From a plasmid: DNA of 64,000 nucleotides. The DNA is taken from the NCBI RefSeq assembly GCF_988243305.1, contig NZ_OZ547138.1. One strand, 5' to 3'. The stretch's first letter is position 1. Each line of letters opens with the position of its first letter. Below are positions 36,001 through 39,000 of this stretch, piece after piece. The position numbers are program-made.

Positions 36001-39000
36001 GTATCCGGGAAACACGCCGCTGATGCTGCTTATCTGGTCCCCGGAAGAGATTCAGGCCCTCGCTGACGGAATGGATATTTCTCTGTCCGATCATGAAATC
36101 AGAACCGTCCTGGCGCGCCTGGAGGACATCCCGGAAGACCAGCGGACTGAATCCGGTATTTCTTCCGGTGCGGCGATGGAGATTATCAATAACGTGAGAG
36201 AAAACCGCCAGGTGACCGTCCCTGCTGAACTGCTGGCGTCCCTGATTCAGACCGCCGAACAGGCACTGTGGAAACGTGAGTGGGCCGCCCGTGATAACGG
36301 CCTCGCCGTCCCGGAATGCGTCACCCGCCGACAGGCGGTGGTTAATCAGGCCCGCGCCCTGCTGAAAAACAACACACGCGAAAACGACTGATGTTATCGC
36401 CGCCTGCGGGCGGCGATTCAGGGAGACCATGAATCATGAACGAAACGCTGAATGCACTGATTTATCGCCACGCCAGCAACCTGCTGCTGGCGCAGGGCTG
36501 GCCGGAAGAGACGGATGTTGACCAGCGTAATCCGAAGTATCCGGGCTGGATCAGCATTTACGTGCGGCTGGATGTGCCCCGGCTGGCGACGTTACTTATC
36601 AACCGTCACGGCGGCGTACTGCCGCCGCTCCTGGCCTCCGCCATTCAGAAACTGACCGGAACCGGGGCGGAACTGGTACTGTCCGGCAGTCAGTGGCAGT
36701 CGCTGCCGGTACTTCCGGCAGACGGAACACAGGTGTTTTTCCCGTATGCCGGAGAATGGCTGACCGAAGACGAAATCAGGGCAGTTCTTGATGCAGTGCG
36801 CAATGCAGTACGAAGCATCTGTTACCAAGTGGCAGAAGATGCCCGGCGTATCCGGGCGGCGCTGACCACCACCGGTCAGACGTTGCTGACCCGCCAGACG
36901 CGCCGCTTTCGTCTGGTTGTGAAGGAAAGCGATTACCCCTGCTGGCTTGATGAAGATGACGAAAATCTGCCCGTGGTGCTCGATGCCATTCTGAACCGTG
37001 GCGCTCGTTTTTCGTCGGTGGAAATGTATCTGGTCAGTGAGTGTGTGGAGCATATCCTGTCCAGTGGGCTGGCCTGCGATGTGCTGCGTATACCTGATGA
37101 ACCGTCCCGTCGCTGGTTTGACCGGGATATTCTGCGGGAGGTGGTCCTGGAAGCCCGGACTGAAATCCGCAGCATGGCGGATGCACTGGCGAAAATCCGG
37201 AAATGATGACGCTGGCGGGGAAAATCTCCGCCTTTTCCAGCCGGTCCCCGGAAAGAGCAAAAGGATGTCGCCGCAGGCTCCGCTTTACCCGGCCATGCGG
37301 GGCATGGCCTTGTGGGTTTTCAGTTATGTGGCCTCAGCGTCGTGTGCGGGCTGTGCCGTGCCTCCATCGTAGCCGGGCTTCTGCGGGCGGGTTGCAAGGT
37401 AAGGTGAACCGCTGCGGTCACCCGGTCCCTCCTTCCCGTCTGCCGTGATTTTCCGGTCGTTCACCCGCTCAGATTTCGCGGTCTCACCCTCCAACTCCCG
37501 TCAGCCGTGCGCGTCAGGCTGCGGCTTCCCTTGCGCCCTTGCAACCCTGCAGGTCCGGCAAAGATGGAGGCACGGCACCGCCCGGTGTCGCGGAATATGT
37601 GAACAACGGAGGAAATCCCATGCAGTATGCGAAACCTGTCACTCTGAACGTTGAAGAGTGCGACCGTCTGTCTTTTCTGCCTTACCTGTTTGGCCTGGAT
37701 TTTCTGTATGCCGAAGCGTCTGTATACGCGCTGGCGAAAAAAATGATGCCGGAATATGAAGGCGGATTCTGGCACTTCATCCGCCTGCCGGACGGTGGCG
37801 GTTACATGATGCCGGATGGCGACCGTTTTCATCTGGTCAACGGTGAAAACTGGTTTGACCGTACCGTGAGTGCTGATGCCGCAGGCATCATTTTGACTTC
37901 CCTTGTGATTAACCGCCAGTTGTGGCTGTACCACGACAGCGGGGATGCAGGGTTGACACACCTGTACAGGATGCGCGATGCGCAGTTGTGGAGCCACATC
38001 GAATTTCACCCCGAATGCAACGCGATTTACGCGGCACTTGACTGATTAACGGACGGGGCGGCAATGCCGCCCCTGTAAAGGAGACGAGAACATGTACTGT
38101 ACTGTTAAAGAAATCATCCGCGATGTACTGGATACAGACGTGCCGGACAGTGAATGCGTTTTTGCCGTGGTGCTGACCCGTGGGGATGTGCGTCACATAG
38201 CCCAGGACTGGAACCTGTCAGACGATGAGCTGGAAACCGTCATGCAGCGACTGGACGATGCCTTTGAGCATGGTGCGGATGTCAGCGTTGTTCACGACGT
38301 TGTTCGTGAACTGATGGAAGAAAAGCGCGCCAGCCGTCATGTGACAGTCCCGGCGGTGATGCTGGAAAAAGTGATGGCGCTGGCAGGCAGTGAAATGAAG
38401 CGCCTGTATGCCGTCGGGAGTGAGAACGGGGGCGACGGTGACGCATTCGTCAGGGAGGAACGCGAAGCAATGGACGTTGTGTTACAGGCGCTGGACGGGG
38501 AGACGATGTCATGAATATCAGCACAGAAACCCGCGAAATTCTGCGTAATTACAGGGCCGTGATTAATGCGCGGCGTCGTGAAATGGGGCAGAAACCGCTC
38601 ACCACCGCGCAGATTGTTGATGAAATCTGCGATTTTGTGGCGAATCAGCAGGCGGTTTTCCTGGGCGGTCACTACATCCTTCAGGGCAGCAGAAACAGGT
38701 GATACAGGGGCAGGCGGTGGAGGCCGCCTGTCAGCCCGCGCGAAAACCCCAGGCAGGCTGACGCCTGCCGGAAACGCGGGGTGCAGCGCCTGCGGCGCTG
38801 CCGGCCCGGCTTTCCGGTCAGAAGGTAGTGTATGGCTGTATGCAGGGAACAGGAGTGATATTCCGTGACACTGTCACCGTTTCTGGCTGTCTTTTATTGC
38901 GCCCACTTCGGCTCCCGGCTGCCTGGCGGCATCCGGTCGTCAGGCCCGACTCCGACGGGCAGCTGCTGGCGCACCCGCCAGTCTCCGCCGAACCCGCTGG

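Follow-up and report, generated by a model that had tools for sequence, protein, structure and literature searches.

Single-stranded-DNA (ssDNA) promoters have been described in the leading regions of conjugative plasmids. Class 1 (ssp1) promoters comprise Frpo1/Frpo2 of the F plasmid and ssi1-3 of ColIb-P9 (Masai and Arai 1997; Bates et al. 1999; Couturier et al. 2023). In pESBL, the hairpins located 5' of klcA and ardA were termed "class 2 ssDNA promoters" by Wen et al. (NAR 2025, PMC12672017), who found them to be without sequence homology to ssi/Frpo. The two operons headed by these hairpins show no expression in donors but a strong response in newly formed transconjugants, where they are induced no later than 15 min after conjugation, and this induction is prolonged in uvrD mutants, in which double-strand conversion is delayed. 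In addition, start sites were mapped by 5' RACE at both hairpins in that study. In F, ssp2 was identified as the promoter of yfgB, an ArdB homologue (Fraikin, Yamaichi and Lesterlin, bioRxiv 2026, 10.64898/2026.01.09.698686). The same authors observed that synthesis of the complementary strand comes to a halt where the ssp2 stem ends, that this stall is resolved by UvrD, and that deletion of ssp2 leads to lower transfer into restriction-proficient hosts. With ssp3 in place of ssp2, transfer was restored for an EcoGIII host, whereas for an EcoKI host it was not.

The DNA considered here, referred to as the window, is a stretch of 64,000 nucleotides from a plasmid and corresponds to an IncI-type plasmid leading region. 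An Rfam scan detects PK-repZ, the IncI replication-control RNA, at 11030, the genes ssb, psiB, psiA and that of the MOBP relaxase (at 50501) all lie on the plus strand, and the gene order is syntenic with that of pESBL. The polarity of transfer is established for IncI1 plasmids and for F; applied to the window, it would make the minus strand both the transferred strand and the template for klcA/ardB and ardA. The published ColIb-P9 ssi sequences also match the minus strand of the window.

Two elements of this region form a repeat pair, copy 1 at 37261-37595 and copy 2 at 44209-44544, each a putative class 2 ssDNA promoter unit on the minus strand. In global alignment, 322 of 336 columns are identical (95.8%), the differences amounting to 13 substitutions and one 1-nt indel, and a repeat search of the window returns a direct repeat of 300 nt (37284-37583 and 44233-44532) with 97% identity. 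The GC content of the copies is 0.63-0.65, versus 0.52-0.55 in the downstream genes. The preliminary description had reported two near-identical GC-rich elements of about 330 bp, and its bounds fall within ~16 nt of those given here. As a separate observation, the two copies within this one plasmid appear to have been homogenised. The element is present in at least 5000 PLSDB plasmid records, and Rfam at gathering thresholds gives no match inside it, as is expected since it is a DNA element.

Both copies are intergenic, starting 55 nt (copy 1) and 105 nt (copy 2) past the stops of the preceding ORFs at 37206 and 44104, and they end about 25 nt from the ATG codons of klcA/ardB (37620) and ardA (44569), so that their placement directly before the two antirestriction genes, as previously stated, holds. 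The same ATG codons are given as starts in the NCBI annotation of a plasmid with 100% identity across the query. On the plus strand, the first gene after copy 1 is the klcA/ardB-type antirestriction gene (37620-38045, 141 aa) and the gene after copy 2 is ardA (44569-45069, 166 aa), the latter sharing 99.2% nucleotide identity with pESBL ardA. A profile scan assigned KlcA and ArdA to no NCBIfam family at 1e-5; their identity rests on the annotation of the identical NCBI record and on the 95% identity of klcA/ardB to F yfgB. The ORF track also predicts N-terminal extensions for both genes, which had been suspected to be false. These extensions were reproduced and begin with L or M at the TTG codons 37539 and 44488, inside the repeat, and an alignment of class 2 variants reveals a 4-nt indel difference between alleles within the supposed extension. 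They are therefore not conserved coding sequence, and their reading as coding was rejected, the NCBI starts being ATG codons placed after a GGAGG ribosome-binding site.

At the sequence level, copy 1 is 88.6% identical to the klcA-upstream element of pESBL and copy 2 is 89.1% identical to the ardA-upstream one (~360 nt, E ~1e-131 to 1e-136), and against ssp2 of F (NC_002483) copy 1 shows 88.5% identity in an alignment of 400 columns and copy 2 89.2% in one of 360, the matched stretches measuring about 355-393 nt over all these comparisons. The pESBL elements sit at the two corresponding places of a syntenic leading region, upstream of the same genes, and agree with the window copies in the tip domain, in the 21-bp basal stem and in having a -10 with mismatches, a spacer helix with bulges and a -35 that is paired. 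The same fold is found in ssp2 of F, although F has one copy whereas the window plasmid has two. The roadblock and UvrD behaviour was demonstrated on the F allele.

Folding with DNA parameters turns the minus strand of each copy into an imperfect hairpin of about 238 nt. In copy 1, this hairpin covers 37347-37584, with 37584/37347 as the outer pair, and is supported by folds, duplex diagrams and covariation; in copy 2 it covers 44296-44533 (z = -4.9). The gene-adjacent arm of copy 1 (37554-37584 and inwards) would act as template and the far arm (37347-37398) as non-template promoter strand. The internal dyad symmetry already pointed out is present in both copies, with arms of 30-32 nt that are 90-91% complementary and lie about 175 nt apart. 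Compared to shuffled sequences, z-scores of -3.75 and -4.9 are obtained for the minus strand and -4.0 for the plus strand, none of 100 shuffles being as stable. As the two strands fold about equally well (-88.7 vs -85.0 kcal/mol), thermodynamics alone does not choose the strand. The G.T wobbles favour the minus strand (51 vs 3 and 42 vs 8 cells), although this asymmetry is biased, the structure having been predicted on that strand. The preliminary description had designated the sense strand as the one to fold, which does not stand, the relevant strand being the presumed transferred minus (template) strand.

On the minus strand of copy 1, a base-paired -35 (TTGCAA, 37392-37397) and a -10 (TACGAT, 37366-37371) are proposed on the non-template arm, the latter facing 37560-37565 (plus-strand sequence AAAGAT) across T.T and C.T mismatches. 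Plus-strand transcription is predicted to start around A37572 (37570-37574), inside the 21-bp basal stem, which would give a 5' UTR of ~48 nt. In copy 2, folds and duplex diagrams place the putative -35 (TTGCAT) at 44341-44346 and the -10 (TACGAT) at 44315-44320, also on the minus strand, with a predicted start near 44521. We infer the hexamers in both copies from this arrangement and the start sites from a spacing of 6-8 nt after the -10 and from the pairing register of the fold. The hairpin rebuilding -35 and -10 hexamers that had been sought thus takes the form of TTGCA(A/T) and TACGAT on the far arm of a covarying stem, and the alignment of the two copies yields, among the 13 substitutions, the kind of compensatory change that was also looked for: in copy 2, 37392 T>A goes together with the compensating change 37544 A>T (copy 1 coordinates). 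Counting against the promoter reading, the nominal spacer of 15 nt (20 with bulges) is outside the usual range of 16-18.

The lower stem is further supported by covariation. In an alignment of 37 related lower stems, pairing holds in 96.6% of cells and 12 of 33 pairs change on both sides; none of 500 shuffles reaches the observed values, and slid controls are 33-44% paired. RNAalifold, run on a MAFFT alignment of 14 full-length class 2 variants, gave only 5 double-changed pairs because MAFFT misaligned the -35/spacer region between two allele types, and this full-length alignment was replaced by per-sequence folds and an alignment of the lower stem only. Per-allele duplex diagrams show that the alleles keep one architecture despite differing spacer sequences. 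In the family consensus, positions 2-6 of the -10 lie within an internal loop, and CTTG is invariant in 37/37 aligned related hairpins, but these were retrieved with a search pattern in which CTTG was fixed.

Within this common architecture, the two window copies differ from the tested alleles in several respects. Their -10 reads TACGAT, whereas that of the tested pESBL and F alleles reads TAAGAT; the non-template spacer counts 20 nt versus 15 in pESBL and F, and that of the template arm 15 versus 19; finally, the -10 is mismatched through two single mismatches instead of the 3x3 loop of pESBL. The window carries a variant allele in both copies, which is a new side observation.

In view of these data, each repeat is in all likelihood a class 2 (ssp2-type) ssDNA promoter of the conjugative leading region, and the repeats would most likely switch on the antirestriction genes while the DNA is still single-stranded in the new host. 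The repeat, its orthology, the hairpin, the covariation, the gene context and the strand come from the present analysis; the early induction, the mapped start sites and the roadblock come from the papers on the orthologues. According to the proposed mechanism, the minus strand of the window would enter the recipient as ssDNA during conjugation, each element forming its ~238-nt hairpin. In the lower hairpin, the far arm would supply the -35 TTGCA(A/T) and the -10 TACGAT and the gene-adjacent arm the template, with a mismatched -10 and a bulged spacer helix. The host sigma-70 RNA polymerase would start ~7 nt past the -10, in the basal stem, and read along the ssDNA template into klcA/ardB or ardA, so that production of the antirestriction proteins would precede the formation of the double-stranded restriction target. 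Once the complementary strand is made, the hairpin would be lost and, since the gene-adjacent duplex is only a poor promoter (TTGCAA/TTGCAT-N15-AAAGAT in the window; CTGCAT and TTTTAT in pESBL and F), expression should stop after conversion. By homology with ssp2 of F, the stem may also stall complementary-strand synthesis until it is unwound by UvrD, thereby prolonging the single-stranded phase.

An alternative reading is that the elements would mainly serve DNA processing, as a roadblock or priming site for complementary-strand synthesis, transcription being secondary. Such a reading, which we consider improbable, draws on the UvrD-resolved stall of ssp2 at its stem end, on the rescue by ssp3 of transfer into the EcoGIII but not the EcoKI host (10.64898/2026.01.09.698686), and on a tip whose conservation goes far beyond the needs of a promoter. 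Nevertheless, Fraikin et al. themselves treat ssp2 as the yfgB promoter, start sites were mapped at both pESBL copies (PMC12672017), and it is the promoter core that the wider family conserves, whereas the length of the tip varies (hairpin spans of 159-231 nt). Besides, the promoter and roadblock roles are mutually compatible.

In copy 1, this tip (apical) domain extends over 37410-37535 of the minus strand and is G-rich, weakly paired and unusually conserved in sequence: in 14 class 2 variants, 15% of its columns are variable, versus 58-78% in the spacer arms. On the transferred strand, it contains 42% G and seven GGG runs. Its strong conservation is not accounted for by the promoter role. 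Regarding coding potential, a small ORF in the tip was rejected on either strand, as the alignment, read by eye, shows no three-base periodicity of variable columns, and so was a longer ORF through the tip, which would have to cross the 4-5-nt allele indels of the spacer arms.

Returning to the class 2 promoter reading, the unit of copy 1, 5' of klcA/ardB, consists of a small hairpin, the long hairpin and the start of the 5' UTR, and that of copy 2 lies 5' of ardA. The small hairpin of copy 1 (37291-37320, plus strand) comprises 8 bp in the form GGCCATGC-GGG-GCATGGCC, followed by TTGTGGGTTTT, and copy 2 has a terminator-like hairpin with a T-rich tail of the same sequence at 44240-44269 (plus strand). 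A terminator scan flags this site in both copies, in a shifted register and with the T-run TTGTGGGTTTT interrupted, and the hairpin is kept through two AT-to-CG double changes in diverged relatives. It is probably the intrinsic terminator of the preceding operon.

The relationship with class 1 calls for a distinction between design and descent. The preliminary description had proposed single-strand promoters of the ssi/Frpo type, which holds for the function, through the experiments on the orthologues, but not for the homology, the copies belonging to the separate class 2. In both classes, a hairpin on the transferred strand rebuilds a sigma-70 promoter, in the same region and orientation and in the same size class; however, the promoter core of class 1 is another one, and class 1 drives ssb-psiB and the oriT-proximal operons whereas class 2 drives the antirestriction genes. 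It would be possible to see the copies as diverged classical Frpo/ssi elements, sharing a sequence family with F ssiD and ColIb-P9 ssi1-3, given the shared location, orientation, length of ~330 nt and general hairpin-with-promoter design, and the name 'Frpo-prime' given to a relative by Samuel et al. (Nature 2024). Yet a sensitive blastn comparison (word size 7) of the two copies with F ssiD, F ssiE and ColIb-P9 Frpo1-3 yields a best E of 4.8, from matches of 9-14 nt, while the same references match the other repeat family of the window, the ssi1-3/Frpo homologues at 39075-39405, 45421-45748 and 48279-48607, with 87-98% identity. In addition, the window contains just three occurrences of the class 2 core motif, none of them in its ssi copies, and the klcA/ardA hairpins of pESBL were themselves reported to lack ssi/Frpo homology (PMC12672017). 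Common ancestry with class 1 is thus very improbable, and the shared hairpin-promoter design means that the copies work like Frpo, not that they are members of its family. F ssiE, considered as a match for the copies, was discarded, no significant match being found with blastn.

Least credible of all is the idea that the copies are usual duplex promoters, or else structures of the 5' leader RNA acting as attenuator or stability hairpin, which were duplicated before two genes: although the plus strand, and hence the RNA, folds as well as the minus strand and a terminator-like hairpin lies on the upstream edge, a duplex sigma-70 scan finds no promoter upstream of klcA/ardB or ardA, the inferred and published starts are in the gene-proximal arm so that the transcript would exclude the hairpin, the wobble pairs favour the minus strand, and the orthologues are donor-silent, induced in transconjugants and for longer in uvrD mutants (PMC12672017).

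More distant relatives place the class 2 promoters in a broader context. A relative with 79% identity is the candidate Frpo' 4 of Samuel et al. (Nature 2024), whose candidates (Supplementary Table 2) are computational and come from an insect-associated Erwinia element. Whereas Frpo' 4 is a full-length relative of the window copies, Frpo* 1 and Frpo* 3 share with them the promoter core CTTG-N11-GCCCGGCTANNNT-N5-CACGGC but form shorter hairpins (~170 nt) without the class 2 tip domain. When core-sharing hairpins were collected from the window, F, pESBL and scanned genomes, the first downstream gene was ArdA, KlcA/ArdB or an M.EcoGIX-like methylase at 55 of 68 sites. A further hairpin of the window, at 34756-34979 (class 3), displayed no convincing -35/-10 boxes when inspected by eye. 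Yet another hairpin lies at 33536-33697.

As a tentative extension, which we regard as possible but rather doubtful, class 2 could represent a single branch within a much larger family of such promoters on Enterobacterales plasmids, all of them hairpins. The members of this family may share the non-template core CTTG-N11-GCCCGGYTANNNT-N5-CACGGC, with the -10 in a permanent internal loop, as well as the motifs AAGCCGCA and GGGTGA, conserved immediately above the -35 helix, and nearly all of them may precede ArdA, ArdB/KlcA or an M.EcoGIX-type orphan methylase. The G-rich 126-nt tip, found only in class 2, would then be a replication-roadblock module, and the two copies of IncI plasmids would prolong the single-stranded state of two consecutive stretches of the leading region. 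This wider family may not yet have been described as such.

The function of the element is already known for its orthologues, and the window is therefore a confirmed instance rather than a discovery; the new side observations are the variant allele, the wider family of core-sharing hairpins and the conserved G-rich tip. In practical terms, gene callers yield false N-terminal extensions here, and class 2 elements escape searches seeded only with Frpo/ssi. Work towards a proper model of ssDNA promoters could benefit from the variant allele, from the apparent homogenisation of the copies and from the shared promoter core. Finally, such promoters provide for antirestriction expression in the first minutes after entry, before the DNA becomes a substrate for restriction, and this early expression therefore bears on how resistance plasmids cross strain barriers.

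Two near-identical GC-rich elements of about 330 bp do lie before a klcA/ardB-like gene and ardA, as the preliminary description had stated. In a repeat search of the window, the 300 nt at 37284-37583 recur in direct orientation at 44233-44532 with 97% identity, and global alignment widens the homologous block to 37261-37595 (copy 1) and 44209-44544 (copy 2), with 322 of 336 columns identical (95.8%) and 13 substitutions plus one 1-nt indel separating the two. Both copies are intergenic and exceed their flanks in GC content (0.63-0.65, against 0.52-0.55 in the genes 3' of them). 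On the plus strand, copy 1 is followed by a klcA/ardB-type antirestriction gene (141 aa, ATG at 37620) and copy 2 by ardA (ATG at 44569), each ATG lying about 25 nt from the repeat end and being preceded by GGAGG. The possibility that the repeats are coding sequence is excluded, and the N-terminal extensions of the ORF track are artefacts of ORF calling, as had been proposed, since the peptides in question (one per gene, L or M followed by 18 residues) arise at TTG codons within the repeat, the annotated starts in an NCBI record 100% identical over the query are the downstream ATGs, and the stretch concerned carries a 4-nt indel among other alleles.

The two copies are a further instance, and a sequence variant, of an already known element, the class 2 or ssp2 promoter working in single-stranded DNA, an identification that is secure: they share 88-89% identity with the two class 2 elements of pESBL and 88.5-89% with ssp2 of F. 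In pESBL, six operons are strongly induced 15 min after mating, each has a large predicted hairpin 5' of it, and the start sites determined by 5' RACE for all six hairpins agreed with predictions (Wen et al., NAR 2025, PMC12672017). More precisely, three of these hairpins, ssi1-3, form class 1, the term class 2 was given to the pair preceding klcA and ardA, which are similar to one another and unlike ssi, and the one 5' of M.EcoGIX constitutes class 3 (PMC12672017); the classes were later renamed ssp1 to ssp3 by Fraikin, Yamaichi and Lesterlin (bioRxiv, January 2026), who showed yfgB, an ArdB homologue, to be driven by ssp2 in F. The single-strand promoter function initially proposed for the repeats is thus very probably right, given these orthologues, but their assignment to the ssi/Frpo type does not hold by descent. 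Membership of that family fails on sequence homology, its defining test: in blastn searches (word size 7) that compared the window with five reference Frpo/ssi sequences and with the candidate elements listed by Samuel et al. 2024 (Supplementary Table 2), neither copy matched any of the five references (best E = 4.8); both did match candidate Frpo' 4 (79% over about 340 nt). The homologues of ColIb-P9 Frpo1 (ssi1; 48279-48607, 98%, before a DUF4942 gene), Frpo2 (ssi2; 45421-45748, 87%, before the ORFs following ardA) and Frpo3 (ssi3; 39075-39405, 98.5%, before ssb) all lie on the minus strand, and these three are also the sole matches to F ssiD. Leading-region repeats of two families, unrelated to each other, therefore occur in the window, and it is the latter set that represents the classical ssi/Frpo elements. 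Just upstream of ssi1, a 42-nt AT-rich direct repeat (48078-48119 and 48145-48186, 83% identity) with the internal palindrome GTGAAAAAACTTCAC in each copy adjoins the position of small HTH-regulator genes annotated in pESBL, and is possibly an operator.

The window belongs to an IncI-type conjugative plasmid, with the IncI replication-control RNA PK-repZ at 11030 and an identical public record typed IncI-gamma/K1, MOBP and MPF_I. Its 33 kb-53 kb portion and the leading region of pESBL-EA11 are colinear, with an identity of about 96%, and the former comprises, all on the plus strand, a DUF1281 gene (annotated CDS 33752-34654), an M.EcoGIX-like methylase (35039), klcA/ardB (37620), ssb (39472), a ParB-like gene, psiB, psiA, ardA (44569), nikA and the relaxase gene nikB (50501). 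Since these leading genes point towards oriT and the transfer polarity of IncI1 and F plasmids is established, the transferred strand would be their template, namely the window minus strand; the published ssi sequences of ColIb-P9 match the minus strand, in agreement with this assignment. Elsewhere in the window, the 8-nt unit GATAACAA(G) forms two arrays, inverted relative to each other (30154-30238 and 31279-31375), on either side of a segment of about 1 kb. The identical public record places a gene for a ParA-family ATPase and another, small gene in this segment; the arrays probably represent centromere-like repeats belonging to a partition locus.

Folding with DNA parameters, suggested earlier as a check for a hairpin bearing promoter hexamers, yields one long imperfect hairpin per copy on the minus strand (37347-37584, z = -3.75 against shuffles; 44296-44533, z = -4.9). 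From tip to base, this hairpin consists of a 126-nt tip domain, a putative -35 helix (TTGCAA in copy 1, TTGCAT in copy 2), a bulged spacer helix, GCCCGGC and then TACGAT, with T.T and C.T mismatches at bases 1 and 3 of the latter, and a basal stem of 21 bp. In the promoter reading of this model, the gene-proximal arm would act as template, with the far arm, read from tip to base, as non-template strand, and transcription would start near 37572 and 44521, 6-8 nt past the -10 box, leaving about 48 nt of 5' UTR. Neither an ordinary duplex promoter nor a structure in the leader RNA is likely: scanning the duplex for sigma-70 promoters gave none upstream of either gene, the predicted start falls within the gene-proximal arm, and the orthologues are silent in donors, induced in fresh transconjugants and induced for longer when double-strand conversion is delayed (PMC12672017). 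The gene-side duplex reads TTGCAA-N15-AAAGAT in the window allele, with CTGCAT and TTTTAT in pESBL and F, and the duplex form would be a much poorer substrate for RNA polymerase than the folded strand. Confining the consensus bases to the far arm would offer a simple route to a promoter active in the folded single strand alone. At the upstream edge, an 8-bp hairpin followed by TTGTGGGTTTT (37291-37320 and 44240-44269), kept in relatives via AT-to-CG double changes, looks like a terminator of the preceding operon.

The fold is also supported by its evolution. The alignment of the two copies, proposed as a search for compensatory changes, reveals one compensated pair, 37392 (T>A) and 37544 (A>T), which are mutual partners in the -35 helix. 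Scanning the core pattern CTTGN{11,16}GCCCGGYTANNNTNNNNNCACGGC over 100,044 species, with a single genome per species, returned 60 loci, nearly all from Enterobacterales (Pantoea, Erwinia, Enterobacter, Klebsiella, Salmonella, Yersinia pestis and others), the remainder being a few chance matches and some records under unrelated taxa; the window holds three occurrences, with zero expected by chance. Those matches that fall in records of Streptomyces, Collinsella, Oscillospiraceae and cyanobacteria are near-identical to enterobacterial plasmid sequence and may therefore reflect assembly or binning contamination. Fourteen distinct full-length class 2 variants, including both window copies and F, share one architecture with differing spacers (TGCATCCCCGCC, TGCATTCCCGG, TGCATTCGTG, TGCAACCC), each with a matching partner. 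In the alignment of 37 distinct lower stems, 96.6% of the cells are paired, and in 12 of 33 pairs both partners have changed, amounting to 104 cells against 31.8 in shuffles; none of 500 shuffles reached the observed values, and sliding the partner by 1-3 columns left 33-44% paired. As the search pattern fixed the far arm alone, the fact that the opposite arm pairs with it is an independent observation. Positions 2-6 of the -10 box lie within a 7x7 internal loop in the family consensus. Counts of minus-strand G.T wobbles against C.A cells (51 vs 3 and 42 vs 8), biased as they are by a structure predicted on the minus strand, point to this strand as the one that folds.

About 70 hairpins spanning 159-231 nt, from many Enterobacterales (loci L003-L062), share the promoter core and fixed motifs, examples being Yersinia pestis (L016, 7397-7435) and Enterobacter sp. 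Ag1 (L003, 5002-5040 and 7562-7600). In a set of 57 distinct hairpins, comprising the window ardA copy and 56 others taken from F, the window and the genome scan, 51 have AAGCCGCA at a constant spacing from their 5' end, and most have GGGTGA at a constant spacing from their 3' end. The first downstream gene at 68 sites encodes a methylase (21), ArdA (18), KlcA/ArdB (16) or DUF1281 (5), the product at the other eight matching none of the window's leading-region proteins. Besides, a third window hairpin of about 160 nt (33536-33697, minus strand, z = -2.9), before the DUF1281 gene, has the class 2 promoter core (CTTGCAT-N..-GCCCGGTTAACGT-N5-CACGGC) and is otherwise not alignable to class 2; its identity is 100% to the pESBL counterpart and 99% to that of F, it is similar to Frpo* 1, one of the candidates of Samuel et al., and it is absent from the named ssp classes in the published descriptions consulted. 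Directly 5' of the methylase gene, a large minus-strand hairpin (34756-34979, 31-nt arms, z = -5.8; 98% identity with pESBL, 96% with F) probably corresponds to the class 3 (ssp3) promoter of the literature; inspection by eye disclosed no clear -35/-10 boxes in it. It overlaps an annotated 103-aa 'hypothetical protein' CDS (34651-34962), which may for this reason be spurious.

Compared to pESBL and F, both window copies carry another allele, differing in the spacer and the -10 box. The two copies of one plasmid resemble each other more closely (95.8% in the window, 96.7% in pESBL) than they resemble their orthologues in the other plasmid (87-89%, comparing 37261-37595 and 44209-44544 of the window with 7012-7365 and 13957-14316 of pESBL L064), while ardA is 99.2% identical between the window and pESBL. 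Sequence comparison thus suggests that the two copies are homogenised by recombination between them, with sharp mosaic boundaries. Finally, at the F ssp2 stem-loop, complementary-strand synthesis stalls exactly at the stem end, the stall is resolved by UvrD, and deletion of the element lowers transfer 36-fold into EcoGIII hosts and 5-fold into EcoKI hosts (Fraikin et al., bioRxiv January 2026). Given these F data, DNA processing is probably a role added to that of a single-strand promoter, and is unlikely to be the main role of the element. In the fourteen variants, just 15% of the columns of the tip domain (37410-37535 and 44359-44484) are variable, compared with 58-78% for the spacer arms, and on the transferred strand the domain is weakly paired, with 42% G and seven GGG runs; its conservation might be related to the roadblock reported for F ssp2.
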